From a virus (taxonomy: Duplodnaviria > Heunggongvirae > Uroviricota > Caudoviricetes), in the IMG/VR virus record IMGVR_UViG_2713897073_000007: a stretch of DNA of 21,533 bases, one strand, 5' to 3'. Positions 1,232 through 20,528 of this stretch are shown piece by piece. Both the position numbers and the translations under genes were made by a program. Under the pieces are notes generated by a model, which saw only the letters and a program-made list of their open reading frames with translations, was not told the origin of the DNA and made no database searches. Position 1 is the stretch's first letter, and the number at the start of each line of letters is the position of its first letter.

Positions 1232-1245
1232 TCTGTGATTGTGGC

Positions 1246-2156: not shown

Positions 2157-2160
2157 TTTG

Positions 2161-2640: not shown

Positions 2641-2660
2641 ACGGGGGATTGCTCCCCCGT
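2641..2660 (-). terminator. Stem-loop ACGGGGGA-TTGC-TCCCCCGT located 10 nt 3' of the hok-like stop; probable 3' structural element or terminator of the hok-like mRNA
   Basis: 8-bp perfect inverted repeat read from sequence; position relative to the toxin ORF matches the structured 3' end known for hok mRNAs. Confidence 0.4.
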
Positions 2661-2670
2661 CGCGGTTTCC

Positions 2671-2941: not shown

Positions 2942-3001
2942 CAGCCGAAAGGCACCCGCACGTAATCTATCGCTTTTTTGTTACTCCGGCAATTCTGCCT
3001 G

Positions 3002-3262: not shown

Positions 3263-3304
3263 AGCGACCTCCCTTAACGTGGTGCTGCCGCTATTCTAAG
3301 TTGC

Positions 3305-4414: not shown

Positions 4415-4571
4415 CTGCTCCCTCCCTGTGCGGCATGGTCGCATGTGCGTGCGGAGGGGGTTACTGCTTTTTGTTGTCGCCGTGGCGAGAGAACGGCGCA
4501 GGGGTGAGATTACGCGCGTGGTGGGTGATGATTGTTGCCGAATCATTTAACGGATACAAGGGGCTGAAGCT

Positions 4572-5756
4572 ATGAGTGAAACTCGTTTTCATGGTGCCCG
4601 TGTTACGGAAAATACCGACCTGGTAACAGCGATTAACGATGTTGATTCCAGCGTTATCGGTATCGTGGCAACGGCGGATGATGCGGACGCGAAGCTGTTC
4701 CCGCTGAACAAGCCCACACTGCTGACCCGCGTCAATGACGTGCTGGGAAAATGCGGGACAACGGGGACGCTTTATCGTGCGCTTAAGGCCATCGCAGACC
4801 AGGTGAGTACAAAGGTGATCGTCGTTCGCGTGGCTGAACACAAAGAAGAAGACGGAAAAACGCAGGATCAACTGGTTATCGGTGGTTCTGAATCTGACGG
4901 CAGCTATACGGGGATGTATGCGCTGCTTGTTGCAGAGCAGGATGAAAGCATCGGATACCGTCCGCGTATTCTGGCCGCGCCGGAGCTGGACACGGAGGCG
5001 GTAACAAAATCCCTGTGCGTGATTGCGGGTAAACTGCGCGCGTTTGTGTATGCCTCATGTCACGGCTGTAACACGATGGCTGAGGCGATTACCTACCGCC
5101 AGAAATTCAACGAACGTGAGGTGATGCTCTTATGGCCGGACTTCATCGCCTACAACCCGAAAAGTGGCAAAAACGAAACGTTCCCCGCGCCTGCCTATGC
5201 GTGCGGCCTTCGTGCGTACATTGACCATGAGCAGGGTTGGCACAAATCGCTGTCCAACGTTCCGGTTAAAAATGTGCTGGGGATGTCCAGGCATGTGTTC
5301 TGGTCGTTGCAGGCCGAAGACAGTGATGCCAACAGCCTCAACAACAAAGAAATCACGACCATTATTCGTCGCAACGGGTTCCGCTTCTGGGGCAACCGCA
5401 CACCGGAAACGAACGCCTACATCTTTGAGGTGTATACCCGAACCGCACAGGTGCTGGCTGATTCAATTGCGGAAGCGCAGTTTGAAACCATCGATAGTCC
5501 ACTGACGCCTGCGAACGTGAAGGATGTTATCAGTGCCATCAGGGCAAAACTGGATTCACTGGTGACTGCCGGGAAACTGATTGGGGCGTCGTGCTGGTAT
5601 GACGTGGTGGATAACAGCACCACGAATTTACGTCAGGGGCGTGTGCGTATTCGCTACAAATATACGCCCGTTCCTCCGCTGGAAGACATGGAGCTTTACC
5701 AGTCGTTTACTGATGAATTCTTTGGTCCCGCATTTGCGGTGCTGGGAGGTGCCTGA
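4572..5756 (+). CDS. FI: Contractile tail sheath protein (P2 gpFI family)
   Basis: 394 aa; N-terminal region ...ADDADAKLFPLNKPTLLT... aligns with recalled P2 FI (...ASDADAETFPLNKPVLIT...); SD AAGGGG upstream; followed immediately by the tube gene. Confidence 0.9.
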   Translation: MSETRFHGARVTENTDLVTAINDVDSSVIGIVATADDADAKLFPLNKPTLLTRVNDVLGKCGTTGTLYRALKAIADQVSTKVIVVRVAEHKEEDGKTQDQLVIGGSESDGSYTGMYALLVAEQDESIGYRPRILAAPELDTEAVTKSLCVIAGKLRAFVYASCHGCNTMAEAITYRQKFNEREVMLLWPDFIAYNPKSGKNETFPAPAYACGLRAYIDHEQGWHKSLSNVPVKNVLGMSRHVFWSLQAEDSDANSLNNKEITTIIRRNGFRFWGNRTPETNAYIFEVYTRTAQVLADSIAEAQFETIDSPLTPANVKDVISAIRAKLDSLVTAGKLIGASCWYDVVDNSTTNLRQGRVRIRYKYTPVPPLEDMELYQSFTDEFFGPAFAVLGGA

Positions 5757-6268
5757 TGGCTGTACCAAAACATCTTCGCTTTTTTACGCTGTTTGTGGAT
5801 GGTGAAAACGAAGTGGGTAAGGTGACGTCCGTCACCCTGCCTAAACTGACGCGCAAAACCGACAGCTACCGGGGTGGTGGCATGATGGGTGCGGTAAGTA
5901 TTGATCTCGGTCTGGACGACTCCGCGCTTGATGCGAGCTTTGTCATGGGGGGCGCAGTTCGTGAGCTGTTCCTTAAGTATGGCGGCACGATTGACGGCAC
6001 GCTACTGCGTTTTGCGGGTGAATACTACACCGATGCAGAAAGCGACCTGTATGAAGTCGAAATGCGCGGACGCGTGACGGAAATTGATATGGGGGAAGCC
6101 AAACAGGGCGAAGCCACATCACACACTTACGCCATTAAAAACACCTACTACAAGCTGAGTGTTAACGATCGTCCGTTGTGGGAGATTGACCTGCTGAACT
6201 TCATTTACCGGAAGGACGGCAAGGACATTGTGCCCGATCGCATCCGTTCCGCGCTTGGGCTTGGCTGA
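5756..6268 (+). CDS. FII: Tail tube protein (P2 gpFII family)
   Basis: 170 aa; start overlaps the FI stop (TGATG); position and size match FII; N-terminal pattern ...FVDGENEVGKVTSVTLPKLTRKTDSYRGGGM resembles recalled P2 FII. Confidence 0.85.
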   Translation: MAVPKHLRFFTLFVDGENEVGKVTSVTLPKLTRKTDSYRGGGMMGAVSIDLGLDDSALDASFVMGGAVRELFLKYGGTIDGTLLRFAGEYYTDAESDLYEVEMRGRVTEIDMGEAKQGEATSHTYAIKNTYYKLSVNDRPLWEIDLLNFIYRKDGKDIVPDRIRSALGLG

Positions 6269-6322
6269 TAAGTAATATGCAGGCGGCGCAGTGCGTCGCC
6301 TCTGACTGAAAGGAGTTTCCTG

Positions 6323-6688
6323 ATGAAAGAGACGAAAAACATCGATACCGAAAACACGGTAGTTGCTGACACTGTGAAAGAAACCAGTGAGCGTGGCGTA
6401 AAACTTACCCAACCAATTGAGCGAGGCGGCGAAAAAATCACGTATGTGGAGATCACCGGGGCTATTGAGCAGGCTGGATCTCTGCGAGATTTGTCGCTGT
6501 CTGATGTGCTGAATCTGAAAGCGGAATCCATGTTTACGCTGCTGTCACGAGTGACATCACCGCGACTGGATGAAGTGACGATCAAAAAAATGGCATCCCG
6601 TGACTTTATTCAGTTATGTGTGGTTGCCGTAAATTTTTTGAGCGGTGCGGACTCTGGCGGGAAGAACGAACAGGCGACGGAAGCCTGA
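6323..6688 (+). CDS. E: Tail assembly chaperone gpE (zero-frame product)
   Basis: 121-aa ORF between the tube and tape-measure genes; contains the T TTT TTG slippery heptamer in frame; synteny with P2 E. Confidence 0.8.
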   Translation: MKETKNIDTENTVVADTVKETSERGVKLTQPIERGGEKITYVEITGAIEQAGSLRDLSLSDVLNLKAESMFTLLSRVTSPRLDEVTIKKMASRDFIQLCVVAVNFLSGADSGGKNEQATEA

Positions 6689-6852
6689 TCACGGTTGTGT
6701 GCTTTGAGCACATAGAAGACTTTGTGGCAGATATTGCCGTTATTTTTAACTGGTCGCCCGCCGAAATCTTCATGATGACGCCCGGCGAAGTGGTTAGCTG
6801 GCGTGAGCGGGCGGCACTTCGCAGCGGGAATGCAGACAATGAAGACTCTTGA
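6323..6852 (+). CDS. E': gpE+E' fusion product made by programmed -1 ribosomal frameshift at 6634-6640
   Basis: ORF-track frame 6616..6852 is -1 relative to E and is closed by a TGA at 6601-6603, so it can only be entered by slippage downstream of that point. The heptamer T TTT TTG at 6634-6640 is in the correct zero-frame register. The E' frame ends by overlapping the tape-measure start. Confidence 0.7.
6634..6640 (+). other. Slippery heptamer T TTT TTG (programmed -1 frameshift site for E/E')
   Basis: Read directly; E-frame codons AAT TTT TTG (N F L), -1 frame codons TTT TTT GAG (F F E), matching both ORF-track translations (VNFLSGADS and KFFERCGLW). Confidence 0.7.
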
Positions 6853-9646
6853 TATCCGGGTCGCTTTCAGCGCCGTTGACAGGCTGACCCAGCCTGCCGA
6901 AAACGCCCGCCGCCTGATGGGGCAGTTTGGTGACTCCATCCAGCGAACGCAGGGGGCGATCAAAAATCTCGAGCGTCAGGCGCGTTCATTTGAGCGCGCC
7001 CGCGACGCTGTCAGTAAAGCGGATGCGGGTATCGTGAAAGCACGACGCCAGCTTAACGCCCTTAATCAGTTACAACGCACGGGTACAGTGCTCAGCGAAA
7101 AACAACAAAAGCTGATGCAGCAGTTAAGCACCCGGCTTGAACGCCTGAATGAATCGCGCACGCGGGAAATTCAGAAAATGCGGGAGCTTGGCGGAGAGCT
7201 GAAACGCCACGGCATTTCCCTGACAGGCAGCGATAACACCATCCAGCAGGCCATCAGACGCACCGAACAGTACAACAATCAGCTTGAACGCGAACGGCAG
7301 GCGCTTGCGCGTGTAACGCGGGCGCGTGAGCGGTATTCGCGCGCGCAGGAAACAGCGGGAAAACTGAAAACAGGTGGTGCACTGGCAATTGGTGCGGCAG
7401 CGGCGGGCGGCTATGCTGCCGGGCGTTTTTTGCAGCCTGCGATCGGGTTCGGGAAAGAGATGTCCCGCGTTCAGGCACTGACGCGAATCGACCAGAACAG
7501 CCCGCAGTTTAAGGCGCTGCGTGAGCAGGCGTTAAAACTTGGCTCTGAAACGCAGTTCACCGCAGGCGATGCCGCCAGTGGGCAGGCATTTCTGGCAATG
7601 GCTGGCTTCACACCGCAGGCCATTCAGGCTGCGCTTCCCGGCGTGCTGAGCATGGCAACGGCTGGCGGTATGGACCTTGGCGAGACGGCAGATATTGGCT
7701 CAAATATCCTGACGCAGTTCGGCCTCTCCGCTGACCAGATGGACCGGGTCGGTGACACGCTTACAGCAGTGTTTACCCGTACTAACACTGACCTTCGCGC
7801 ACTGGGCGAAACCATGAAATATGCAGGTCCGGTGGCGGGTAAGCTGGGAATATCGCTGGAGCAGGCCGCAGCGATGGCGGGCGTGCTGGCGAATATGGGT
7901 ATCAGAGGGAGTGATGCCGGGACGGCAATGCGTGCCAGCCTGGCTCGTCTGGCATCACCGCCAAAGGCGGCAGCAGAAGCGCTGAAAGAGCTGGGTGTGT
8001 CCGTCTCTGATGCGAACGGCAAAATGCGCCCGATGGAAGATGTGCTGGCCGACCTTTATAAAGCCACCCGTAAATACGGGGAAGTTGACCGGGTATCGTT
8101 CTTTAAGGACATTGCCGGGGAAGAGGCTTTCACGTCGTTTATGGCTCTCGTTGATGCGGCGGGTGACGGCTCCCTGCCCAAACTGAGAAAAGAACTTGAG
8201 GGCGCACGCGGTGAGGCTGAACGCACGGCAAAGGTTATGGCCAATAACCTTGATGGCGACCTGAAATCACTCGGCAGTGCATGGGAAGGGCTGCGTATCC
8301 GCATTGCAGATCTGATTGATGGTCCGCTGCGTTCTGTCACGCAGTGGCTCACGCGGGTGGTCTCAAAGGTGACGGCGCTGGCACAGGCCCATCCGGTACT
8401 GACGCGCCAGTTACTGATAGCAGGCGGTGCGCTGCTGGCAATGACTGCAACGGTTGGCTCGTTGTCGCTGGTTATTGGAGTGCTTCACGGGAAGCTGGCC
8501 ACGTTGCGTCTTGGTTTTTCTCTCCTGACCGGATCAATGAATGCTGTCAGGCTCCTGCCAGCACTATGGGGAATGGTGACGGGTTCCGTTTCGTTACTGG
8601 GGGGCGCTATCGGGGCGCTGTTCAGCCCGGTCGGATTGATTGCTGCTGCGTTTGTGGCTGCGGCAGTTCTCATCTGGAAATACTGGGAACCCATCAAGGC
8701 GTTTTATGCCGGGGTGTTCAGCGGGATTATGGAGCGGCTGGCCCCGTTACGCGAAACCTTTGAACGGTTTGGTCCTGTTTTTGACGCAATCGGAAGCGGG
8801 ATAAGTCAGGTGTTTAACTGGTTTAAATCGTTGCTGTCACCGATGGAGTCCAGCAAGGAAACGCTGGATAAATGTACCAGTGCTGGCGAGATATTCGGTA
8901 ACGTTCTTGGCGGTGCGTTACAGCTTGTTCTGACGCCCGCAAAAATGTTGCTGGATACGCTGGCGTGGATACTTGAAAAACTCGGTGTGCTTCCGGATGA
9001 AGCGGAAAGGGCGAGAAAGAAAATCGAAGACGCACAGCGTGCGGCCATTCTTCAGGACAAGGTTGCTCTGTTTCAGGGAGACATTGCGAAAATCAATCCG
9101 CCGAAGTCTGCGGAAAATGGCAATGGCACCGGAGGTGATAAACCCAAAGACAATAAACCGCTCACAGACAGCAATACCGGTACGCTACGCAGACTCAGCA
9201 AAATTGCTGATAACACAGGTAAGCTGGTTGATGAGACGAAAAAACGTATTGGCCCCGGCGATATTGTCTTTAAGAACCTGCCCCGCGCACTTGCCGTTCG
9301 TGGGGAGTGGCAGGAGCGGAAGATTGTGCAGGTCAGTAAGCCTGCCCCCGCAATTAATATCACACCCGTGGTCCCGGCTCCGCTGCCTCCGGCGCTGGTC
9401 CCTGTTGTTGCGGCCAGCTCCCGCCCGGTGGCGGAGGCCATACGATCTCCAGTGGCATCAGTTCCTGTAACTTCCCGTAACCGGGAGCCTGTTGCCTCCG
9501 GATTTGGTGGTGAAATTCATGTTCATCTGCATAACGTTGTTACGCAGAATCCCCGCGAACTGGCGAAACTGGTCGGTGAAATGGTCAGGGCAGAAATGGA
9601 ACGGCGCGCCCGTGCCGGGCGTGGCAGTTTTTACGATAAAGATTGA
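6803..9646 (+). CDS. T: Tail tape measure protein (P2 gpT family)
   Basis: 947-aa ORF; long N-terminal coiled-coil-like region, central hydrophobic segments (LLIAGGALLAMTATVGSLSLVIGVL...), Pro/Ala-rich C-terminus; located between E/E' and U. True start may be the in-frame ATG at 6830 or 6839, overlapping the E' stop. Confidence 0.9.
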   Translation: MSGRHFAAGMQTMKTLDIRVAFSAVDRLTQPAENARRLMGQFGDSIQRTQGAIKNLERQARSFERARDAVSKADAGIVKARRQLNALNQLQRTGTVLSEKQQKLMQQLSTRLERLNESRTREIQKMRELGGELKRHGISLTGSDNTIQQAIRRTEQYNNQLERERQALARVTRARERYSRAQETAGKLKTGGALAIGAAAAGGYAAGRFLQPAIGFGKEMSRVQALTRIDQNSPQFKALREQALKLGSETQFTAGDAASGQAFLAMAGFTPQAIQAALPGVLSMATAGGMDLGETADIGSNILTQFGLSADQMDRVGDTLTAVFTRTNTDLRALGETMKYAGPVAGKLGISLEQAAAMAGVLANMGIRGSDAGTAMRASLARLASPPKAAAEALKELGVSVSDANGKMRPMEDVLADLYKATRKYGEVDRVSFFKDIAGEEAFTSFMALVDAAGDGSLPKLRKELEGARGEAERTAKVMANNLDGDLKSLGSAWEGLRIRIADLIDGPLRSVTQWLTRVVSKVTALAQAHPVLTRQLLIAGGALLAMTATVGSLSLVIGVLHGKLATLRLGFSLLTGSMNAVRLLPALWGMVTGSVSLLGGAIGALFSPVGLIAAAFVAAAVLIWKYWEPIKAFYAGVFSGIMERLAPLRETFERFGPVFDAIGSGISQVFNWFKSLLSPMESSKETLDKCTSAGEIFGNVLGGALQLVLTPAKMLLDTLAWILEKLGVLPDEAERARKKIEDAQRAAILQDKVALFQGDIAKINPPKSAENGNGTGGDKPKDNKPLTDSNTGTLRRLSKIADNTGKLVDETKKRIGPGDIVFKNLPRALAVRGEWQERKIVQVSKPAPAINITPVVPAPLPPALVPVVAASSRPVAEAIRSPVASVPVTSRNREPVASGFGGEIHVHLHNVVTQNPRELAKLVGEMVRAEMERRARAGRGSFYDKD

Positions 9647-9652
9647 GGAGTC

Positions 9653-10147
9653 ATGGCCATGATGATGATCTACGGCATGTTTGTTTTTGAGCTGCGCACG
9701 CTGCCGCATCAGCAGTTACAGCAAAACAAAAGCTGGCGGCATGTGAAAAATGAACGCGTTAACCGTTCAGCAAGCTGGCAGTATATCGGTGCAGGTGATG
9801 ATCGCATCGTTCTTTCTGGTGTGCTTTATCCTGAAATTACAGGTGGCGAAGTGTCGCTGTCGCTGCTGACCACGCAGGCGTATACAGGACGACCCTGGCC
9901 TTTGATTGATGGCGTCGGGCAGATTTACGGCATGTATGTCCTGACCGGAACGAACACGACCCGTTCCGAGTTTGATCGCTACGGTAAGGCGAAAAAGATA
10001 GAATTTTCACTGACCCTTGAACGCTGTGATGAGGATTTGCGGGAGCGCCTGCAATCCTCATCGTTCAGCGATATGCTGTCCGGCTTCAAAGATAAAGTGA
10101 CATCATCCCTTAACAGCGCGGCCAGTTCAGTTAAAGGGCTGTTCTGA
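9653..10147 (+). CDS. U: Tail protein gpU
   Basis: 164 aa directly after T; N-terminal FVFELRTLPHQQLQQNKSWRH and LSGVLYPEITGG resemble recalled P2 U. Confidence 0.8.
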   Translation: MAMMMIYGMFVFELRTLPHQQLQQNKSWRHVKNERVNRSASWQYIGAGDDRIVLSGVLYPEITGGEVSLSLLTTQAYTGRPWPLIDGVGQIYGMYVLTGTNTTRSEFDRYGKAKKIEFSLTLERCDEDLRERLQSSSFSDMLSGFKDKVTSSLNSAASSVKGLF

Positions 10148-10159
10148 TTTAATGCTGGC

Positions 10160-10191
10160 CACTCATACCTGGTAATAAGTGGCCAGTCTTA
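10160..10191. repeat. 9-bp inverted repeat CTGGCCACT - 14 nt - AGTGGCCAG immediately 3' of U, at the transition from GC-normal phage DNA to AT-rich cargo
   Basis: Read from sequence; could be a terminator for the late tail operon or a remnant of a recombination site. Confidence 0.3.
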
Positions 10192-10309
10192 ACACTCACC
10201 ATTTGATTGCACCCGCGTTAACGATTTGTTACTGGGTATCAGACATGCTGGATAGCCAGTAGAAACATACCATTAAAATTATTACAATAATTGGTCACAT
10301 GATTATCTT

Positions 10310-10795
10310 ATGCTGAATAATAGAGATATGAATATTAATGAACTTAAAGACTGTATTCACTATGAAGTAATCGGTAGCGAGCGTCCTTTCTCCTGGCGAA
10401 AGGCAATTGTTCGCGCAATAAAACATAGAAGACTTCGTTATTTATTTTGGTGGCGCATAGCCAAATACCTTTTTGATAAAGGCGGATACTGCCGGAAGAT
10501 TGCGGGGAAAATAGAACGTTTCATTCTTGATAAATATAATGTAACAGTCCCTTTAACTGTAAATATAGGGAAAGGCTTTGATATTTCTTATCTCAACAGT
10601 GTTGTTATCGGTCACAAAGTAACAATCGGTGAAAATTGTTCAATAAAACCGGGGGTAACTATTGGGCTACGTGGTGATTTTAATGATATGGATATTGTTA
10701 TAGGACATAATGTGACCATTGGTTGTAATGCCACCATTCTTGGTGGCAAAGTGCGTATAGGAAACAATGTCACAATAGGTGCTCATGCATTGGTA
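10310..10795 (+). pseudogene. 3'-truncated hexapeptide-repeat (left-handed beta-helix) acyltransferase, AT-rich cargo gene
   Basis: Tandem hexapeptide repeats VTIGENCSIKPGVTIG / IVIGHNVTIGCNATILGGKVRIGNNVTIGAHALV; the last 23 aa of the ORF (TTTFKNFKESLTITSFFRIVAVK) are the reverse-strand reading of the tail-fibre fragment, so the gene is cut at about 10795. Confidence 0.6.
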
Positions 10796-11290
10796 ACCAC
10801 CACCTTCAAGAACTTCAAGGAGTCCCTGACCATAACTTCCTTCTTCCGGATAGTTGCGGTCAAATGAAGCGATTGAGCCACTACTGTTTCGCCATAAACC
10901 AAGATGCTCTGCGCCTCCGAGCGTGTTCAGGTCAATGGTTGTGCTCAGGGGGCGTGTTGCAGACTGAACCTGACGCCAGTAACTCCACGGACCGTCTGAA
11001 CCATTCCATGTGCCAGAAAGGTTGCGCATATAAACATTGCCTGTTCTGGTGGTGTAACGCTGCATTCCTGCAAAATTACCGCCATTGAATACCTCCAGTA
11101 CACCGACTGCACCGTCTTCAGGGAAATTTTTAGCAGCCGTCGCGTTAGTGGATGTAGCTTTAGACCAGACGCCAAGATAAGCCTTAACGGGACCAAATGT
11201 ATTCAAGTCAGCATCAAGCGGCATTTCGCCATTGTTTTTCATAAACGTCAGGCTGGTAACGCCAACATTGTCCAGAAAAGCGCCCTTATC
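10796..11290 (-). pseudogene. Internal fragment of a phage tail fibre gene (gpH-like), truncated at both ends
   Basis: ORF-track ORF 10667..11242 with its frame open upstream to about 11290. Gly/Asn/Thr/Ser-rich fibre-like sequence (GVLEVFNGGNFAGMQRYTTRTGNVYMRNLSGTWNGSDGPWSYW...GQGLLEVLEGGGY). The final 40 aa are an antisense read of the acyltransferase DNA. Family assignment is by composition and synteny only. Confidence 0.45.
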
Positions 11291-11835
11291 TCCACGCGTT
11301 GCACACCGTGCACATGCAGTGCGGCAGCAATGGCGGACAACGCCACGTCCTGACCGATAAGCCCCTGCTCAGCCAGCCACTTCCTGAACGACGATTCAGC
11401 CGCAGCCAGAATAGGTTCGGATTCCGGGCCGGGATAAAAGTACAGTTTTGCATTCAGCCGCCATGTCACGATTCTGGCGCTCTGTACGGTCAGGCGGTCG
11501 GCCACCGGGCGGGTATCCTCTGCATTCAGAACGGCACGAACGGTATTAAGCAACGCCTCCGTTGCTGTGCCGTCGCCTTCAGTGGACAGGATGGAAACCG
11601 TCACACAGGCCGGAGACGGGCTGATGGCCCGCGCATCACGCACCAGACCGCTGGCGCTGCGTGCAAAATACTCGTATGCACCTGACGGGCCAGCAACACT
11701 CAGGCCGTCGTACGCCCGCTGCGCCCGCAGTCTCAGCGAGGTGTCGCTCTCCATCACCGCGTCGGTGGTATCCGTTGCCGGAGTGATAACCAGGCGCTTT
11801 GTGTTCATATTGCCCGCGAGGTTGTCCAGGTCTGT
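11248..11835 (-). pseudogene. J: Baseplate protein gpJ fragment lacking the N-terminal third and probably the C-terminal end
   Basis: ORF 11248..11886; the segment TKRLVITPATDTTDAVMESDTSLRLRAQRAYDGLSVAGPSGAYEY...SPSPACVTVSILS...RPVADRLTVQSA...YFYPGPESEPI...LHVHGVQRVEI matches recalled P2 J residues from about 100 to 270. The first 17 codons of the ORF are an out-of-frame read of capsid-gene DNA. Confidence 0.65.
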
Positions 11836-12463
11836 CATCCAGCAGGGATGAGCGCGCGTCCTGTACCAGTGCATCAGCGTTCGCATACTTACCCGCGTGC
11901 GCCACTGTGTTGTCCATGTTGCGGGAAGTCAGCGTCACGTCATTCATTACGCGTTCACTGGCATCGGTTCTGATGTGCTCCAGCCAGCCCACGTTAACGT
12001 CCTGAAGCAGCTTGTTGGTGCTGAAATTGGATTTTTCCGCGTGTGATGTGCCGTTAAAGCCGATCATGATGCGGTCAAGCGCCACCTGCCGGGCAATCTG
12101 TGTGCTGATGCGCGACTGAAAATCGCTGTGAGCCGCCCAGGCATCAAGCTTCGGGTATGAAATAAACGTGTCGTAGTTCACCTGTTCACACTGGTACTGA
12201 CGAGCCTTCATATCGACAGCGTTAATCGGATTACGGCGATCTGTGCCGTCATAACTGGTATTCGTGCGCGCAATCGGCCCGGTGGTGTCCAGGAGAACTT
12301 TTTCGCCTTTCTGGTCAGTTACACCGATTACATTAATTCTTTTCGTAAATTCGGTACTTTCCTTTGAAGCGTTTTCAAAACGCTGTTGTACCGATGGATT
12401 GACGGTAAATCGCGATACCAGCGCAGAAACCGGGATATTGTTAAGCGACGCCTGCTGCGTCAT
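11836..12463 (-). pseudogene. N: Major capsid protein gpN fragment (N-terminal about 210 aa)
   Basis: ORF 11636..12463; FTVNPSVQQ...RINVIGVTDQKGEKV...YQCEQVNYDTFISYPKLDAWA...IMIGFNG...LLQDVNVGWLEHIR...ADALVQDA matches recalled P2 N N-terminal region. Homology stops near 11836, after which the frame reads J-fragment DNA. Confidence 0.65.
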
Positions 12464-12508
12464 GTAGCAGCCCAGCTTGTTACGGGCATTAATTACTCAG
12501 GGGGAGCA

Positions 12509-13765
12509 ATGATTCAGGACGCTTTTGTGCGCCAGCGTGCGCGGCAACTTTACTGGCAGGGTTATCCGCCCGCAGAAATATCACGTCTGATGGGAATAAA
12601 CCCGAACACGATTTATGCGTGGAAAAAACGCGACCAGTGGGATGAAACGCCCCCCGTGCAGCGTGTCACGCAGTCCATCGATGCGCGCCTCATCCAGCTT
12701 ACTGAAAAACAGAATAAAACAGGCGGTGACTTTAAGGAAATAGACCTGCTGACCCGGCAGCTTAAAAAGCTGCATGATGGCCAGCCGGATGTGATGGCCG
12801 CAGGAAAGAAAGGCCGGGCGAAAAAACTTAAAAATCATTTCACGCCGGAACAGATTGCCGCACTGCGGGAAAAAATCATCAGCAGGCTGGAGTGGCATCA
12901 GCGGGGCTGGTTTGACTCCCTGACACTTTGCAGGGAAGCCGGGATACGTAACAGGATGATCCTGAAATCCCGACAGATTGGGGCGACCTGGTATTTTGCA
13001 CAGGAAGCTCTGCTGATGGCGCTGCGTGACGATGTGGCGCAACCTTACCAGCGTAACCAGATTTTTTTGTCTGCGTCGCGTCGTCAGGCGTTCCAGTTTA
13101 AAAGCATTATTCAGAAGGTCGCGGCTGAAGTTGATGTGGAGCTGAAAGGGGGCGATAAAATCATCCTCTCCAACGGCGCAGAGCTGCATTTTCTCGGCAC
13201 TTCTGCTGCGTCGGCACAGTCCTATACGGGCAATTTTTATTTTGATGAATTTTTCTGGGTCAGTCGCTTTGCTGAACTGCGCAAGGTGGCTGGCGCTATG
13301 GCAACCCTCAGCGGACTGCGGCGCACCTACTTCTCCACGCCATCCACCGAAACGCACGAGGCGTACGCCTACTGGAACGGCGACCGCTGGAACGAGAAAA
13401 AGGCCTCGCATAAACGCCAGCGTTTTTCTGTGGACTGGAAAACGCTGCATAACGGGCTTATCTGCCCTGACCGGACTTGGCGGCAAATTGTCACGCTGGA
13501 AGATGTGGTTAATCACGGCTGGAAACACACCGATATCGACGAAATTCGTGATGAAAACACCGAAGACGAGTTCCTCAATCTCTATATGTGTGAGTTTGTC
13601 CGCGAAGGGGAATCGGCATTTAACCTGAATATCCTGATTGGCTGCGGTGTTGACGGATACGACGACTGGAAAGACTGGAAACCTTTTGCTCCCCGCCCGA
13701 TGGGGAATCGTCCGGTATGGATTGGGTATGACGCAAACGGCAGCAGTGGCAACGGCGACACCGTG
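12509..13765 (+). pseudogene. P: Terminase ATPase (large) subunit, P2 gpP family, 3'-truncated
   Basis: ORF 12386..13840; preferred start MIQDAF at 12509 with SD GGGGGAG; Walker-A-like KSRQIGATWYFAQEA; the last roughly 25 aa (RMPYQRRPSRFSFLRTAAKNELTR) are an antisense read of the gpA fragment. Family size is about 590 aa, so roughly 170 C-terminal residues are missing. Confidence 0.7.
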
Positions 13766-15042
13766 CGGATGCCATACCAGCGCAGGCCGTCGCGGTTCAG
13801 TTTCTTGCGGACCGCCGCAAAAAACGAGTTAACCAGGTAATCGCTGGAGTCGCGCATAGTGGCCCCGTTCCATTTGGGATTCGGATGACCGTTCTCCGTT
13901 GTTGCGTGGTATTTTGACGGGCAGGTGACAGTCAGAAACACCGCTCTGTCGCCACGGGCTTCGGCCAGAAGTTCCAGCCCCTTCATGGTGGCCATCATTT
14001 CTGCCTTACGGTGAACCGGGTTACTTACTCCCGCGTAATACACTGTCTCAAGATCAATCGTGAACCCGTCTTCGTTTTCCAGCATGAAACTTTTCAGGAA
14101 ATCGCGTGTTTTCTCGCGCTGTGCGCGAAACTCGCTTAACGCATCCTGGCTCAGATAGGGCGATGTTTTTCTGGAAACCAGACAGGCGGCGCGGAGTTGT
14201 TCTTCTCTCCACTCGCAACGTAACAGCCACAGTTTGCGTTTCCACCATTCCGCACAGGTCAGGCGAAGGATTGCGCCCGGCAGCAGCTCCGTGTCTGGTT
14301 CGTTCCTCCGGCCTTTGTCTGTTGTCAGTGCGTCATAATGCGGAGGCATGGCGTGCAGGTGTAACGCCATGCGGGCCAGCATCTGATACGCCTTCAGCGT
14401 TACATCCATGGTCAGCTCGCCATCAGTCGCACCAAAGCCATCGCAGAGTTTTTCGAAGGTGCTGCTGAACATCGCCGCCGTCATGGTGGCCAGCGTCTGT
14501 ATCTGGTGTTTGTTGAGCTGCGGCAGGTAAAGCAAATCGTCCAGGCGTTCGCGTCCGGCAAGGGAGCGATAACCCGGTGTCAGCCAGTGTCCGTCAGTGC
14601 GATCCAGACGTTCGAATATTTTGCGCAGGGTTCCGCGTGCATAGCGTTCTGCCTGCCAGCTCTTTTTGCCTTTCCGGCGATCGACTTCCTGTTTTTTGCG
14701 CAGGAAGGAGAGGTGGCGAATAAGCGGATCGCGCAGATAGGACGGCAGCAGGCGCAGCGAGGCCATGGCTTCATCCACCGCGCCGCGTGCCTGTCTTCTG
14801 GCGTCTCCTGCCAGCGTGATGGTTTTGTCCTGTTTTTCCTGTGCGTCCAGGCTTTTATTAATCAGGTTGCCCAGTGGCGTGGCAGAGAACGCCGCATCAG
14901 CCTTTTCCTGTCGGCGCTCGTTCTCTGCCTGGTAGGCATCCAGCCAGGAGGAAAGCGCGGATTCAGGTGCGGGGATCCCCGTTCCTTCACGCCCCACTGC
15001 GTGGCGCGGTTGTTGCCAGTCCCTGATGTACTCTGTCGTCAT
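13759..15042 (-). pseudogene. A: Replication initiation protein gpA family (rolling-circle initiator), 3'-truncated after about 428 aa
   Basis: ORF 13582..15042 directly downstream of the early operon; sequence up to ...GLRWYGIRTV is protein-like, the following 58 aa are Pro/Ser-rich antisense of terminase DNA. P2 A is about 760 aa. Convergent with the P fragment. Confidence 0.65.
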
Positions 15043-15048
15043 ACTGAT

Positions 15049-15414
15049 TTACTGCGTCATACCGTTCAGGGTGTCACGGCAAACGGCAGCCAGCCGCTGA
15101 ATTTCCAGCACGGTGTCTTCTGTGTCGGCATAGCGATGTGTGATGCGGATGCTGTCGGCAATCACATCGACGATTGCAGAGGATGGGCGCTGGTAAATGC
15201 CAATAACGGACGGAGTGCCACCTTCAATGCGGTAAAGCCTGTAATTTCCCTCGTGGCTGTCAATCATGTAGCGACCATCAATAACAATCTTTCCGTCAGC
15301 GAGCTGCGGTACAGGCAGGGATTTCAGGTACATGTCATAACGTTCACGCACGCGAACGGCAAGATCACGCTCTGTGTTGAGCAGGTATTCAAGAAAGTCG
15401 TTGGCGAGAATCAT
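15049..15414 (-). CDS. Hypothetical early-operon protein (121 aa), immediately upstream of the A fragment
   Basis: ORF-track ORF; position corresponds to the orf83-like slot before gene A in P2-family early operons; no recognisable motif. Confidence 0.5.
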   Translation of the reverse strand: MILANDFLEYLLNTERDLAVRVRERYDMYLKSLPVPQLADGKIVIDGRYMIDSHEGNYRLYRIEGGTPSVIGIYQRPSSAIVDVIADSIRITHRYADTEDTVLEIQRLAAVCRDTLNGMTQ

Positions 15415-15486
15415 TGCGGCAATCCTCTTGTTACAGATGTGCGAAGGCCTCCTGCCGCAAGGTGCAGGAAAGGCCCGGAACAGGAA

Positions 15487-15717
15487 TTAATGGAGTTTGT
15501 TTTGCTGCTGGATGAGCTGCTGAAGCTCGCGCAGATCATCCGCCAGATAACTGAAAACAGCGGATGAGTAGAGGTTTGAAAGTTCGCAGCTACGCTCATG
15601 CAGCATATTGATGTGCATGATTTTAGCGACGCGGAATGCGCGGGAAAGTCTGCGGTTGATTTCAGTCTGGATGTGACGACGCTCCGCGATAGCGCGGTGC
15701 TGTTTGCGGTTTGCCAT
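15487..15717 (-). CDS. Hypothetical small basic protein (76 aa)
   Basis: ORF-track ORF; Arg/Lys-rich N-terminus (MANRKQHRAIAERRHIQTEINRRLSRAFR) suggests nucleic-acid binding; function unassigned. Confidence 0.4.
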   Translation of the reverse strand: MANRKQHRAIAERRHIQTEINRRLSRAFRVAKIMHINMLHERSCELSNLYSSAVFSYLADDLRELQQLIQQQNKLH

Positions 15718-15896
15718 GGTGTGGCCTCTTTGGTTGTAAGTTTTGAAAACTCACCATCCAGAGCTGCGAAACTGTGGGTGGCGAGACGTACGGGGTTCGC
15801 AGTACCGGCAACCAAAGAACCCGGCCCGACCGAAGTCGGCCCCGTACGCCCCGCCATAATTCTGACGCGAAAAAAACGTGGCAATACAGTACGCAC

Positions 15897-15917
15897 AAAA
15901 AAACCGCTGGCGCGGTT
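15897..15917 (-). terminator. Hairpin ACCGC-NNNN-GCGGT followed by a T7 run on the minus strand
   Basis: Read from sequence (plus strand shows A7 then ACCGCTGGCGCGGTT); lies in the 367-bp non-coding gap between the SPFH module and the 76-aa gene. Confidence 0.4.
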
Positions 15918-16053
15918 GTGCGCTTTGGTTGTCAGCAGGCTGCGAAACCCGGCACCCGTTTTATGAGGTGCAGCGAAAATGTAACCTGACTGATTGCGGC
16001 ATGGCAAGCGGTTTTTTTGTGAGAACGGCATACTAAAAAATCCTGATACTGCT

Positions 16054-16078
16054 CCGGCCAGCGGTTTGCACTGGCCGG
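16054..16078 (-). terminator. 8-bp inverted repeat CCGGCCAG - 9 nt - CTGGCCGG starting 7 nt after the SPFH lipoprotein stop
   Basis: Read from sequence; a T6 run follows on the minus strand only after a 13-nt spacer, so intrinsic-terminator function is uncertain. Confidence 0.35.
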
Positions 16079-16084
16079 GTGTCA

Positions 16085-16915
16085 TTACTTCACGGGAACG
16101 AACGGAACAGCGGTGTTACTGGTCATGTATTGCGGCAGCGTGCCGTTCCATTTGTTGATTGCTTCCAGCTCCATAACGCCGGGATTCTGGCGCAGAGCTT
16201 CGCCGCGTAAACGAATGGCGTCGGCTTCAGCCTGGGCTTTTGTGCGAATGGCATCGGCCTGTCCGGCAGCTTCTGCGCGCAACATGTTGGCTTCTGCTTC
16301 GCGTTGCTTGACTTCCTGTTCGCGTTGCAGGGTTTTCTGGTTTGCCGTGACTTTGGCGTTAATGCTGTCGATAACGGTTGGCGGATATTCCGGTTTACCG
16401 ACATAAGAGAGGCTCATGACCTGAATACCGATGGGGGTCATCTCTTCCTGAATATCTTTAAGTGCTGAATCCAGCAGTTCAGACTTACCACCGTCGATAA
16501 ACTTATCGGTGGTCATTTTGCTGGCCAGTCGGTTGAGTGCATCGGCGATCTTCTGGCGCAGGTCAGTGTCGGTAATGTCGTCCACGCCTTTGCGGTAGGT
16601 CTGAAACACCGTGGTAACTTTGGATGGATCAACTTTGTAGGCCACGCCGATGTGATAGCCGATGGTTGTGCCGTCACTCATCTGGAAGTTGAACGGCTCA
16701 TCGTAACTCTTCATTTGTTTGAAGGTCGGGAAGATGTAAACCTCTGTATTCCAGCCTGTCCAGTAGCGGCCAACGCCAACCACTTCACCGACGCCTTTGT
16801 CGTCGCCCAGTTTGTTGACTTTGATGCCCACATTACCTGGCTCAACGCGATCGCAACCAACCAGCAGGATGGCGGCAAAAAGCGGGAGAATCTGAAAGAG
16901 TCTGAATTTCTTCAT
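16085..16915 (-). CDS. SPFH/band-7 (stomatin-prohibitin-like) domain lipoprotein
   Basis: 276 aa; signal peptide with lipobox (LLVGC); central band-7-like region; C-terminal Ala/Glu/Gln-rich coiled coil (QREQEVKQREAEANMLRAEAAGQADAIRTKAQAEADAIRLRGEALRQN). Start overlaps the upstream gene stop (ATGA). Confidence 0.75.
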   Translation of the reverse strand: MKKFRLFQILPLFAAILLVGCDRVEPGNVGIKVNKLGDDKGVGEVVGVGRYWTGWNTEVYIFPTFKQMKSYDEPFNFQMSDGTTIGYHIGVAYKVDPSKVTTVFQTYRKGVDDITDTDLRQKIADALNRLASKMTTDKFIDGGKSELLDSALKDIQEEMTPIGIQVMSLSYVGKPEYPPTVIDSINAKVTANQKTLQREQEVKQREAEANMLRAEAAGQADAIRTKAQAEADAIRLRGEALRQNPGVMELEAINKWNGTLPQYMTSNTAVPFVPVK

Positions 16916-17115
16916 TGTTTGATTTCCTTGATGTACTTACTGAAAAGGCGAACAACGCCTGCCGGGTACAGCATGGCAATGAAAATTCCCAGCAATACCA
17001 GGAAGGAGCTGTCTGATGAAATCATTCGGGGGAGTAGTCCTGCATACAGAATGAGAGAGACGAGGACGCATACCAGCGCCCACATGTATGCGCGAAACCA
17101 GGTCTTTTTGTTCAT
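16912..17115 (-). CDS. Small membrane protein (67 aa, two predicted transmembrane helices), translationally coupled to the SPFH lipoprotein
   Basis: Hydrophobic segments WALVCVLVSLILYAGLL and FLVLLGIFIAMLYPAGVV; 4-nt overlap with the downstream start. Confidence 0.6.
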   Translation of the reverse strand: MNKKTWFRAYMWALVCVLVSLILYAGLLPRMISSDSSFLVLLGIFIAMLYPAGVVRLFSKYIKEIKQ

Positions 17116-17126
17116 ATCGCGGTCCT

Positions 17127-17426
17127 TTACTGGTTAAGGAAAAAATCGAAAACGTTGTCGATGCGTTGCAGCGGCTCCTGCTGCATTGCTTCCGGCGTTT
17201 CTGATTCACCTGGTGACTCCAGCGTCGCGCAAAAATCCTTGATTTCATGATGGAGCGTCAGACGAATGGCAGGAGCCATGGTTCTGGCGTGCTCCAGCTC
17301 ATCCAGCAGTGCCAGCACGGCAGATGGCGAGAGCATTGCGCGAAACGCCAGTAATTTTTGATGCGTTGCCATTCGTTGCAGGTCAGTCGCCAGTTCGCGT
17401 AATTCCTGGTGGTTGATGGCGCTCAT
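17127..17426 (-). CDS. Hypothetical early-operon protein (99 aa, acidic C-terminus)
   Basis: ORF-track ORF; ATGA overlap with the upstream gene; no recognisable motif. Confidence 0.5.
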   Translation of the reverse strand: MSAINHQELRELATDLQRMATHQKLLAFRAMLSPSAVLALLDELEHARTMAPAIRLTLHHEIKDFCATLESPGESETPEAMQQEPLQRIDNVFDFFLNQ

Positions 17427-17689
17427 GCTCTGGCTTCCTTCAGTAGCAGGTTAAACATGTGAGTAAGTGGATTGCTACACCCGAACGGCATCGGGTTTAC
17501 GTGGTAAGAAGCCTGGCCTCCTGCTTTGCGAGCGCGACCACCTGTGCTGCGGTTTGTTCTGATGACTAAGCCGCCGCGCCAGAGTCGGCGTAACTCAGCA
17601 TTGATGGCTGTGGTTGGGGTATTCAGTGCTGCGGCGATTTCTCCGCCGCTACAACCCGGATGGGTAGCGATGTAGTCCAGAATGGTCAT
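17423..17689 (-). CDS. Small winged-helix-like DNA-binding protein (88 aa)
   Basis: MTILDYIATHPGCSGGEIAAALNTPTTAINAELRRLWRGGLVIR resembles a helix-turn-helix/wing pattern; coupled overlaps on both sides. Confidence 0.5.
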   Translation of the reverse strand: MTILDYIATHPGCSGGEIAAALNTPTTAINAELRRLWRGGLVIRTNRSTGGRARKAGGQASYHVNPMPFGCSNPLTHMFNLLLKEARA

Positions 17690-17889
17690 CTGCGTGACTC
17701 CTGTACCTGTCGGATAAGGTTCACCCGCACCACATTCGTGGCGCAGAAGTAAGTGCCGTCAGTGAGATAGATGTGATGTGCATCCTTTTCCGAACGATGT
17801 TTGTCGATAGTGGTAATCAGTCGTTCGTCGACCTCGTATTCGCGGTCTCTGGAGGTGAAGCGAACGACAGGAAAATGCTTAATTGCCAT
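17686..17889 (-). CDS. Hypothetical early-operon protein (67 aa)
   Basis: ORF-track ORF; overlaps neighbouring genes by 1-4 nt. Confidence 0.45.
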   Translation of the reverse strand: MAIKHFPVVRFTSRDREYEVDERLITTIDKHRSEKDAHHIYLTDGTYFCATNVVRVNLIRQVQESRR

Positions 17890-18206
17890 TACACCCTCTT
17901 GGCTTTATGTCTGTATTTGAGCTTTTCTATTTCTTCTTTTTGTTCTTTTAATGTTCTTATGGCTGTGAAAACATTAAAGCCCATAAAATGTGCTCTGTTC
18001 GCTAATGTAATACTGGCACCTTTGTTAGCTATATCATCTTCAATATCAGTGAAATACTGACTGATTTCTTTTAGTGCGGCGCAAAGCTTTGCGAGATCTC
18101 GCCCCCTGTCAAAATATGCATCCTTCAGTATTTTTTGATTTGTCCTGAGCATGCTAACCTCGTGTTTATATATATGGATACCTCCGCGAGTGCGGATTGT
18201 TTTCAT
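17889..18206 (-). CDS. Hypothetical protein (105 aa) encoded in an AT-rich insert within the early operon
   Basis: ORF-track ORF; local base composition is markedly more AT-rich than the flanking phage genes; charged, Lys/Glu-rich C-terminus. Confidence 0.5.
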   Translation of the reverse strand: MKTIRTRGGIHIYKHEVSMLRTNQKILKDAYFDRGRDLAKLCAALKEISQYFTDIEDDIANKGASITLANRAHFMGFNVFTAIRTLKEQKEEIEKLKYRHKAKRV

Positions 18207-18241
18207 GTTTTCTTATTTAATCGTGTGTTTTATTTGTGCTG

Positions 18242-18355
18242 TTATTCTTCAGTGAAAAAACGCTCAATCTTTTTTACTGAATGAATAATTCGCATAATCC
18301 CAATAGCGCAGGCCACCGAAATAATCAGAACAAGCCATGAGATAAATATACTCAT
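18242..18355 (-). CDS. Small hydrophobic peptide (37 aa, MSIFISWLVLIISVACAIGIMRIIHSVKKIERFFTEE), not in the ORF track
   Basis: Hand translation; ATG overlaps the stop of the upstream 81-aa gene in an ATGA arrangement; one predicted transmembrane helix followed by a basic/acidic tail; AT-rich. Confidence 0.4.
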   Translation of the reverse strand: MSIFISWLVLIISVACAIGIMRIIHSVKKIERFFTEE

Positions 18356-18597
18356 GCGATATTCCCCAGCTTATACGGTTCAATATGTTCCCCGCATTCT
18401 GCGGCACAGATCAGCTCGGAAAGTTCGTTAAGTGCATCCAGATCATCAGCGTAAAAAGCCACGTCATACAGACTTCGGATTGCTCTGGTCAATGAGTCAC
18501 GGGCCGCACGTTCAGCATGAGCGCCTGATGCACTTAAGCGAAAATAAAAACGCTCAAGTGCTTTGTTAATGAGAGTTTTATATTCTTTGCCCATCAC
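18352..18597 (-). CDS. Hypothetical early-operon protein (81 aa)
   Basis: ORF-track ORF; no recognisable motif. Confidence 0.5.
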   Translation of the reverse strand: MMGKEYKTLINKALERFYFRLSASGAHAERAARDSLTRAIRSLYDVAFYADDLDALNELSELICAAECGEHIEPYKLGNIA

Positions 18598-18605
18598 AAC
18601 GCCCT

Positions 18606-18893
18606 TTAATCTGCTTTCTGTATTTCAGCTTCTGAATCCATACAAATAATTTCGATATAGGGTTCATCGCCATTAACCTGGCGTGCCTTTTCAGCTTCGC
18701 TAATGATTTCTCGTACGGTCTGGTACGGAAGTTCCACAAGCAGCCGTGTGCCGTTCAGATAAATGTAAGTGGCTTCGGCGGCTCCGTTTTTACCCGCCGG
18801 AGTCACTCCATCAATAGCGGATGCGCGTAATAACAGTTCACCGCGAAAATCAATAAAACGGATAAATACACCTTGTGCATGCTCTTTGGTCAT
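18606..18893 (-). CDS. Hypothetical early-operon protein (about 95 aa)
   Basis: ORF-track ORF 18606..19007; preferred start at the Met of MTKEHAQGVF, which avoids overlap with the upstream gene. Confidence 0.5.
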   Translation of the reverse strand: MTKEHAQGVFIRFIDFRGELLLRASAIDGVTPAGKNGAAEATYIYLNGTRLLVELPYQTVREIISEAEKARQVNGDEPYIEIICMDSEAEIQKAD

Positions 18894-18903
18894 AAAGCAC
18901 CTG

Positions 18904-19245
18904 TTATAAATCAGCCTGTTTAATAAAACTTTGCCCGCGAAGCAGACGATCAACCGTGCGAAGTGCTTCGTATAATGTGAAATCCTGCCCGAACTGATTG
19001 TCGCCACTGCTTAGAGCAAAAATGCGGTTTCCGGTAAACGGATTGCGTGGGCATTTGTGGATCACGATTCCAGCTTTCTCAATCAGCCAGGCATGCTCGC
19101 CGATTTGTTTTACTGGGTAGCCATCCGGCGTTGCGTGTGTATCACTCAGGCTGTAGCGGATGTTGCTGCGTGATGCACTGGTAGCAAAACGGTTAGCGTG
19201 GCGTTCTGCACCATTGCGAAAGCGTGAATTACGTTGCTGTTTCAT
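18904..19245 (-). CDS. Hypothetical early-operon protein (113 aa)
   Basis: ORF-track ORF; basic N-terminus; function unassigned. Confidence 0.5.
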   Translation of the reverse strand: MKQQRNSRFRNGAERHANRFATSASRSNIRYSLSDTHATPDGYPVKQIGEHAWLIEKAGIVIHKCPRNPFTGNRIFALSSGDNQFGQDFTLYEALRTVDRLLRGQSFIKQADL

Positions 19246-19404
19246 GTTAAAGACTCTGTACAGATTTAATTATTCCGGCATAGAGGCCGAACTCAAAATA
19301 TTTGCGATTAAATCGTATCGCATTGTTTTCACGTTTTGCGGACTGCTGGTTCATTTTCGTTTGCCTCCGCACATGAGAATTGCGCCGCTTAAGAGGTAAC
19401 CGAA

Positions 19405-19429
19405 GTTAATTGATAGTATTACAATTAAC
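19405..19429. promoter_or_regulatory. Perfect palindrome GTTAATTG - 9 nt - CAATTAAC in the 250-bp gap inside the early operon (candidate operator or protein-binding site)
   Basis: Read from sequence; AT-rich; about 160 nt upstream of the 113-aa gene start on the minus strand. Confidence 0.35.
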
Positions 19430-19497
19430 ATAAGGTCCAATTTGTCCATGCCACACATAATTACCCTCATTGCAGTAGTTGTGGGTTGTCAGGTTTC

Positions 19498-19704
19498 TCA
19501 CCCGATAAACCAGATAACAAACGCTATAAACATCGCCCCAATAGCTGCCGGGAAAAGTCCTTTGGTATAAGCGGCGATATATTCAATGCTGAGTTCAATA
19601 AAGCGTTCTTCATGTCCCGTTAACTTGCGAAACAAATAGATCTCTATTACGCCTATCTCAATAAAAACAAGGGTCAGAATGGCGCTGATGATATGGCTGG
19701 TCAT
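19498..19704 (-). CDS. Small membrane protein (68 aa, two predicted transmembrane helices), second gene of the early operon
   Basis: Hydrophobic segments IISAILTLVFIEIGVIEIYLF and FPAAIGAMFIAFVIWFIG; starts 6 nt after the cox stop. Confidence 0.55.
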   Translation of the reverse strand: MTSHIISAILTLVFIEIGVIEIYLFRKLTGHEERFIELSIEYIAAYTKGLFPAAIGAMFIAFVIWFIG

Positions 19705-19710
19705 TTATGA

Positions 19711-19998
19711 CTAAAGTCCCAGCCACAACAACCATGCGTCGCGGCGTTCTTTCGGTTGCTCAAAAAACGCTTTGCGCATGCCTTCGTTAAATGCTGGCAG
19801 ATATACCCAGTTTTCTGATGCACGCGTCTTCACTGAACCTGGTTTCACAAAGTCAATCGTTGGTAACTTTGCAGCGTCAATCATGGTTCTGACGGTTGAT
19901 TCTTTGCGACCAATCATCTTGGCAAATAGTTGATATGGCACCGCTTCAAGTGGATATGGTGCTACCTGAATGAACCCCTCAAGCTCTGATTCGCTCAT
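19711..19998 (-). CDS. cox: Cox-family excisionase / early-promoter repressor
   Basis: ...WVYLPAFNEGMRKAFFEQPKERRDAWLLWLGL matches recalled P2 Cox (...YWVYLPAWNNGLKLAYESRPKEIRDGWLMWLGL); divergent from the C repressor gene; SD GGGAGA 8 nt upstream. Confidence 0.85.
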   Translation of the reverse strand: MSESELEGFIQVAPYPLEAVPYQLFAKMIGRKESTVRTMIDAAKLPTIDFVKPGSVKTRASENWVYLPAFNEGMRKAFFEQPKERRDAWLLWLGL

Positions 19999-20111
19999 TG
20001 TGGTAATCTCCCTAATTCGTTCGAATGGCTCAAAATGGCTTATATCGGCTTATTTGAGTGTTTTTATGTTTGTGCCCGATGTGGCATGTTGCGATGGAGG
20101 ATATGCCCGAT
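19999..20111. promoter_or_regulatory. C/cox divergent switch region (expected Pe and Pc promoters with operators); contains short direct repeats and two copies of a 15-16 bp near-palindromic element
   Basis: Position between divergent cox and C starts. Direct repeats AATGGCT (x2) and GGCTTAT (x2) at 20024-20053; elements TGCCCGATGTGGCAT (about 20073-20087) and TGCCCGATATGGCAT (about 20104-20118), the second overlapping the C start codon region. No promoter hexamers could be assigned with confidence. Confidence 0.45.
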
Positions 20112-20432
20112 ATGGCATCTTTGTCAAGCATGGGTGAAAAATTTCGCCTGATTCGTGAAGCAGAAGGTATGACCCGCCAGGAGTTTGCGGATTGTGTTGG
20201 GCTGCCTTATGGGACGGTAACTAACTATGAGGTGAGGGGGAAGCAAGTAACAGAGGGTGCCTTACTTAAGGTTACGAAACACCCTAAATTTAAGAAGTAT
20301 GCTTATTGGTTATTAACAGATGAAACGATGCCGGAGGTCGGGCAAATTTCTCCGGCTCTCTCTCTTGATGGTTCCTGCAATTCGGAGGGAGATCGCGTTT
20401 CAACCGAAACAATCCAAAAATTATCCCGCTGA
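20112..20432 (+). CDS. C: Immunity repressor C (P2 C family, helix-turn-helix)
   Basis: ORF-track ORF 20058..20432; ...GLPYGTVTNYEVRGK...KYAYWLLTDETMPEVGQISPALS matches recalled P2 C (...GVPYGTLSYYESGR...KYTLWFMTNQIAPESGQIAPALA). Preferred start MASLSS at about 20112, with GGAGG 11 nt upstream; alternative starts at 20094 and 20103. Confidence 0.8.
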   Translation: MASLSSMGEKFRLIREAEGMTRQEFADCVGLPYGTVTNYEVRGKQVTEGALLKVTKHPKFKKYAYWLLTDETMPEVGQISPALSLDGSCNSEGDRVSTETIQKLSR

Positions 20433-20528
20433 GGCCAGAAAACTGGTTAGACCTGCTTTTTGTCTGGTCTGATTATTGCTGGAAAGAGGCTGGAGAAATT
20501 GTAGAGCGGTTCATTGGAGGGCTTCGTA

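Follow-up and report, generated by a model that had tools for sequence, protein, structure and literature searches.

The 45 bp that separate the divergent capsid and terminase genes at positions 12464-12508 of the window (by which we mean the whole stretch of 21,533 nucleotides analysed, IMG/VR record IMGVR_UViG_2713897073_000007) are almost certainly the scar of a single 1,017-bp deletion, made by illegitimate recombination with TA at its ends in a P88-like prophage integrated between flk and pdxB. The gap is an ordinary, known kind of cryptic-prophage deletion scar, and nothing there suggests a new element.

Host locus and prophage identity

The window is a segment of the E. coli chromosome that runs from flk to an integrase gene, adjoins pdxB and contains a heavily deleted P88-like prophage (Xuanwuvirus, P2 family). 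In E. coli F5656C1 (NZ_CP024260; locus L004), the element lies between flk and pdxB with a phage integrase at its end, and the window is 100% identical to this chromosome over window positions 5392-11836 and 11835-21533. Positions 1-4600 also match F5656C1 and seven related strains at 100%. Fragments of H, J, N, P and A are collinear, keep their native orientation and stand beside the integrase, as befits a defective remnant of the P2/P88 type. Five junctions interrupt this tract between 10.8 and 13.8 kb (window 10795-13761), namely acetyltransferase/H' at about 10795, H'/J' at about 11288, J'/N' at 11835, N'/P' at 12491 and P'/A' at 13760. The five junctions delimit about 3 kb of collinear leftovers, each 0.5-1.3 kb long, of the tail fibre, baseplate J, capsid, terminase and replication genes.

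The 45-bp gap and its flanking reading frames

On the minus strand, a CAT at 12461-12463 marks the start of a 275-aa open reading frame (11636-12463) whose residues 2-210 match the Pfam family Phage_cap_P2 (PF05125, E 2.6e-69, profile positions 7-211 of 327). On the plus strand, an ATG at 12509 opens a 443-aa frame that stops at 13840 and encodes the N-terminus of a gpP-type large terminase, with matches to Terminase_5 (gpP-like, PF06056) and Terminase_6N (PF03237). The starts at 12463 (minus) and 12509 (plus), together with these Pfam identities, confirm the description in an earlier note of terminase and capsid genes that diverge across 45 bp. The gap itself is composite: exactly 28 bp of former N coding sequence (12464-12491) followed by 17 bp of native P leader (12492-12508).

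The 28-bp N remnant (minus strand) comprises former codons 8-16 and is untranslated, being preceded in frame by a TGA created at the junction. Intact N starts MNLVMSDNARNKLGCYMTQQ, and the ATG that opens the N fragment in the window is the native internal codon for Met17. Upstream of Met17 in frame there is no canonical start before the TGA, which the P leader supplies. The earlier note had taken this ATG for a fortuitous leftover, and it is indeed the first canonical start past the stop codon made by the junction. The capsid gene fragment (11836-12463, minus strand) is translatable from Met17 and retains residues 17-226 of the intact 350, beyond which the open reading frame leaves the native N frame and runs into the J fragment, down to 11636.

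The native P leader (12492-12508, plus strand) keeps a GGGGGAG Shine-Dalgarno sequence at 12500-12506. Behind it, the terminase large-subunit fragment (12509-13760, plus strand) retains codons 1-417/418 of 583, with the helix-turn-helix (HTH), the gpP-like N-terminus and the ATPase domain; the C-terminal nuclease part is gone, and the open reading frame continues into antisense A sequence to 13840. Pairing with the 16S 3' end is predicted at -9.4 kcal/mol for the P start, which places it in the best 1.5% of window 20-mers. The N-fragment ATG, in contrast, scores only -3.8 kcal/mol, a value equalled or bettered by 26% of window 20-mers, and by this measure the 20 nt upstream of it hold no Shine-Dalgarno sequence. 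The proposal that P kept a good ribosome-binding site and N had none is thereby borne out.

A single 1,017-bp deletion

In a megablast search of GenBank phages, window positions 11835-13767 aligned as two segments whose counterparts extend over about 2,949 bp in every intact relative, and the annotation beneath these matches was always terminase, capsid scaffolding protein (gpO) and major capsid protein. Three intact Xuanwuvirus relatives formed the comparison set: phage P88 (NC_026014), Citrobacter phage Shae_phiSM (OR565851) and the prophage of E. coli FDAARGOS_1077 (locus L003). According to their RefSeq or GenBank annotation, each carries N-O on one side and P-Q on the other. In P2 (NC_001895) as in these relatives, P and Q point one way and O, N, M and L the opposite way from a spacer of about 150-170 bp; in the window, the divergent P-O region is almost wholly deleted. 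The intact relatives are 89-100% identical to the window at the nucleotide level in the N fragment and 97-99.8% in the P fragment, and they have in common with it the order and orientation of the surviving fragments, the P leader and the Shine-Dalgarno sequence. They differ in carrying 1,017 bp more at this point, with the N start, O (278 aa, Phage_GPO) and a 154-bp O-P spacer, and in possessing complete N (350 aa) and P (583 aa) genes as well as Q, M and L.

On the N side, window 11835-12491 corresponds to L003 2501-3157 at 100%, and on the P side, window 12490-13766 corresponds to L003 4173-5450 at 99.8%. The junction lies at 12490-12491, where the dinucleotide TA is common to both parental flanks, and L003 3158-4174 is missing. 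With a slash at the breakpoint, the N-side parental flank reads ...TTACGGGCATTA/TCTGACATCACCAGATTCAT and the P-side flank ...CTTCCTGTA/ATTACTCAGGGGGAGCAATG, and the window reads ...TTACGGGCATTA-ATTACTCAGGGGGAGCAATG across the junction. The TA microhomology occupies L003 3156-3157 and 4173-4174, and both flanks read through with zero filler DNA. A search for repeats around the junctions returned no insertion sequence ends and no long direct repeats, only short matches at chance level. Known flanks, a shared TA, no insert and no flanking insertion sequence or significant repeat are the features of a microhomology-mediated (illegitimate) deletion, and we infer that illegitimate recombination gave rise to the 1,017-bp loss.

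In L003, N occupies 2125-3177 on the minus strand and O occupies 3201-4037. The missing DNA accordingly comprises 20 nt of N, the 23-bp N-O spacer, the 837-bp O gene and 137 of the 154 bp of the O-P spacer. The deleted gene encodes the scaffold/protease O (278 aa; Phage_GPO, PF05929, E 2e-90). When the whole window was searched by tblastn (E<=1) with L, M, N, O, P and Q of an intact relative and with O, Q and M of P2, only N residues 8-226 (window 12490-11834, 99.5%) and P residues 1-418 were recovered; no O of either the Xuanwuvirus or the P2 type, no Q, no M and no L was found.

The claim that the scaffold gene is absent from the window therefore holds, and the suggestion that a deletion had taken O together with the 5' region of N is supported by a single loss mapped against three intact relatives, an alignment that settles the deletion question. 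The loss at the 5' end of N is small, amounting to 7 codons of sequence and 16 codons of translatable protein. The O region was indeed deleted, yet N and P are also cut at their far ends by separate deletions, and the whole head module would be dead.

In the sequence of events that we propose, one illegitimate recombination at the TA microhomology would have deleted 1,017 bp from an integrated P88-like prophage. N would have lost its start codon, its ribosome-binding site and the first 7 codons; the N-O spacer and the entire scaffold/protease gene O would have gone with them, as would the divergent O/P late-promoter region except for its last 17 bp. What remained would be a promoterless 5' fragment of P with its native Shine-Dalgarno sequence and an N fragment usable only from Met17, without one.

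Probable loss of the divergent late promoters

In the P2 record (NC_001895, 2994-3166), the 173-bp P-O spacer holds both transcription start sites and the binding site of the activator (Ogr), and the P transcript starts 23 nt upstream of the P coding sequence. Since the P2 start lies that far upstream, the 17 bp retained in the window cannot hold the promoter. The late-promoter consensus is TGT-N12-ACA (PMC3931495). No copy of this motif, exact or with one mismatch, occurs in the 45-bp gap, in keeping with the earlier failure to find one. As a test of promoter loss, however, the scan fails: the exact motif is also missing from the intact O-P spacers of L003, P88 and P2, which contain versions with one mismatch only, so its absence is not diagnostic, and we dropped the scan as uninformative. 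Aligning the P2 P-O spacer to its Xuanwuvirus counterpart was likewise set aside, as the two sequences do not align.

The intact spacers of 74 related loci (described below) share a central dyad of the TGTTGT...(C)AACA type, for example TGTTGTAAGAAAACGGCCAGAACA, and, immediately before the P leader, a GC-rich CGCGCGCGGG box with TAAT after it. The dyad, the GC-rich box, the TAAT and a putative -10 element all fall inside the deleted 137 bp. A functional P2-like prophage is expected to have a divergent late-promoter spacer (about 145-217 bp in relatives) with an activator-binding dyad; 17 bp of that spacer survive here, and prediction of sigma-70-like promoters over window 12200-12800 returned none. 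By analogy with P2, and from the dyad and GC-rich box conserved in the 74 spacers, both late promoters would have been lost, and neither the N nor the P fragment would be expected to be expressed from a late promoter. Read-through transcription from antisense N or upstream DNA may nevertheless reach the P fragment, whose Shine-Dalgarno sequence is intact.

Other deletions in the same prophage

The J/N junction (11835-11836) fuses internal sequence of baseplate gene J to internal sequence of N at a TC microhomology, and leaves a C-terminal J fragment (11248-11835, minus strand, PF04865). Relative to F5656C1, which lacks this deletion, 5,555 bp are missing (L004 6446-12000). F5656C1 keeps in them the 3' end of N, M, L, X, the holin, endolysin and Rz-like genes, R, S, V, W and the 5' end of J. 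No copy of the J/N junction was found in 5,426 complete E. coli genomes (the nine carriers of the N/P junction included), IMG/VR or metagenome contigs; either the source strain alone carries it or it arose during assembly.

The P/A junction (13760-13761) joins P at about codon 418 to the interior of the replication gene A, of which an N-terminal fragment remains (replication endonuclease, 13761-15042, minus strand, PF05840). Lost here are the portal gene Q, the expected cos region, cargo genes and the 3' part of A. The P break, after ...GGCAACGGCGACA, is identical to the nucleotide (within a 2-bp CA) in two arrangements (window 13760-13761; L005 17634-17635 and 19294-19295). In the window and nine genomes, P is joined to the interior of A. 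In nine other ETEC-type genomes (e.g. NZ_LR883050), P is joined to a fragment of a ParM gene, and an intact A gene follows about 113 bp after that fragment. The arrangement in the window looks like a further deletion that began exactly at the older P/ParM junction. We also considered the P breakpoint as a general deletion hotspot and rejected it: the 25-mer to the left of the break occurs 114 times in IMG/VR, and 113 of these occurrences run on as intact P, the remaining one being of the ParM-joined type.

Decay of the head module

The gpO protein is essential for viable P2 and P4 virions (PMC7552001), so loss of O alone would kill the phage. It is also a core hallmark gene product of P2-like viruses, and a functional P2-like (Peduoviridae) prophage carries the full head hallmark set of L, M, N, O, P and Q (PMC13100340). 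From this set, the window retains N residues 8-226 and P residues 1-418 only. Since O, Q, M and L are missing and only pieces of N and P are left, the head module would be non-functional.

A full-length capsid protein of the P2 gpN type adopts the HK97 fold, with an N-arm (alpha0, residues 1-14 in P2) and C-terminal A and P domains. Measured against full-length Phage_cap_P2, the fragment in the window is missing the first 16 and the last 124 of 350 residues. Having no Shine-Dalgarno sequence, promoter, N-arm or C-terminal third, it would be untranslatable in practice. The P fragment keeps its Shine-Dalgarno sequence but has lost its C-terminal part and would have no promoter.

The surviving fragments match their counterparts in intact prophages at 99.5-100% identity, a sign that decay went by way of deletion and not of point mutation. 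Judged from this sequence identity, the deletions are probably recent, and we infer a cryptic prophage that is being eroded step by step through deletions.

Alternative explanations

One alternative holds that the lineage normally has adjacent, divergent P and N genes and supplies the scaffold function from another locus or as a fusion with the capsid protein, an a priori possibility in favour of which nothing was found. We located N, O and P in each of 79 IMG/VR loci that encode relatives of P at 46-100% identity. In 74 of the 79, all of them loci whose spacing could be measured, O separates N from P, with an O-P spacer of 145-217 bp (36 distinct sequences), and no relative among these loci, where natural adjacency was sought, has an intact N beside an intact P. 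The exceptions are a locus at a contig end (L066), one with the same N/P junction as the window (L086), one in which the O and P matches are partial and degraded and yield no spacer figure (L064), and two that carry deletions of their own and truncated genes. In L053 (IMGVR_UViG_2571042390_000006, 4501-4502), an independent deletion of 1,404 bp joined N codon 113 to P codon 19; in L083 (4097-4624), only an N-terminal fragment of gpO stands next to P, beside a 937-aa primase-like gene. In the window itself, moreover, N is without its own start codon, P is without its C-terminus, and no O homologue is present. Natural adjacency of P and N in this lineage is effectively refuted, and a native arrangement as the origin of the gap is scarcely credible. 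It would be just as surprising if assembly or processing had made the N/P junction in a collapsed or chimeric contig. That suspicion draws on the neighbouring J/N junction, which has no match in the complete E. coli genomes or in the viral and metagenome collections. A 120-bp probe across the N/P junction, however, gave full-length matches at 100% in nine of the 5,426 complete E. coli genomes (F5656C1, FMU073332, 99-3165, E66, E70, E143, E272, E1624 and LR882973), and more than 1,000 other E. coli genomes match one half of the probe only. Among the matches listed, the flank on the flk side is also common to eight of these nine carriers at 100%. A 39-mer across the junction matches one IMG/VR contig (L086), and no match occurs in GTDB contigs sampled at one genome per species. 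Identity base for base over 120 bp in nine independently finished genomes, together with the L086 contig, marks the N/P junction as a real inherited allele.

Two further readings accept the deletion and ascribe a function to its outcome. The deletion could have been fixed by selection, with promoter loss silencing the O operon and its lysis genes and so 'grounding' the prophage, with no killing of the host. The O operon does include lysis genes in P2 (P2 record), intact holin, endolysin and Rz-like genes still lie downstream of the promoterless N in F5656C1, and at least two further independent deletions of the O/promoter region occur in IMG/VR prophages (L053 and L083). Yet three cases in 79 loci establish no excess over random deletion of a 1-kb target, and H, I, J, Q and A of the same prophage were deleted just as freely; we regard selection of this kind as unlikely. 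Alternatively, the P fragment, with its 417 codons, Shine-Dalgarno sequence, HTH and ATPase domain, could be kept as a functional gene, for instance one that blocks packaging of superinfecting P2-like phages. Its frame is intact, it is 100% identical to functional alleles, and the same truncation point is found in two ETEC prophage arrangements in 18 complete genomes. Recent deletion explains the identity to intact alleles equally well, however, and shared ancestry of the segment explains the shared endpoint; the promoter region is lost, and the PGAP annotation treats the fragment as a pseudogene. A retained function for the P fragment is accordingly highly improbable. Were O-P promoter loss a recurrent, selected grounding of P2-like prophages by E. 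coli and the P fragment at the same time an interference protein, a combination that we consider very doubtful, the head and lysis operons would have been silenced in one step and the shared P endpoint would mark a deletion hotspot or a conserved functional boundary.

Annotation of the allele in public genomes

The identical N/P allele is already present in public genomes annotated by PGAP, and the ETEC-type cryptic allele of the nine genomes shares both the N/P and the P/A junction with the window. In F5656C1, PGAP annotates the P and A fragments as pseudogenes. The N frame that starts at Met17 (L004 11625-12629, WP_044316994.1) is presented there as a 334-aa 'phage major capsid protein, P2 family'. 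The call of an intact 334-aa capsid protein on an N gene without promoter or Shine-Dalgarno sequence is likely an annotation error that is spreading into protein databases. The 275-aa and 443-aa open reading frames of the window ought to be handled as fragments of N and P pseudogenes, and to score the region as an intact or inducible prophage would be wrong. The locus offers a nucleotide-resolved example of stepwise deletional decay in a P2-family prophage of an ETEC-type lineage, with intermediates that survive in sequenced strains. It may be of use as a modest case study or for marking a lineage; beyond correct annotation, its import is slight.

Other features of the window

The tail module at window 3002-10147 looks intact and is 100% identical to that of F5656C1; it comprises an ogr-like zinc finger gene, D, sheath FI, tube FII, E/E', a 947-aa tape measure gene and U. 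A role as a tailocin seems excluded, because the baseplate genes V, W and I, most of J and most of the tail fibre gene are deleted. Between tail gene U and the tail-fibre fragment lies an intact serine acetyltransferase-like cargo gene (window 10310-10867, plus strand); in the related prophage of NZ_LR883050, the corresponding serine acetyltransferase-like gene is split by IS1 (L005 8385-9707).

An Rfam scan gave no match in or near the 45-bp gap, and the two small RNA families that it did find sit elsewhere in the window. They are the C4 antisense RNA (15774-15861, minus strand, 87 bits) and the Hfq-binding small RNA isrK (15897-15971, minus strand, 66 bits), both at the level of the Rfam gathering thresholds, and they are neighbours within the prophage early region, flanked by the A fragment and a gene for an SPFH-domain protein.
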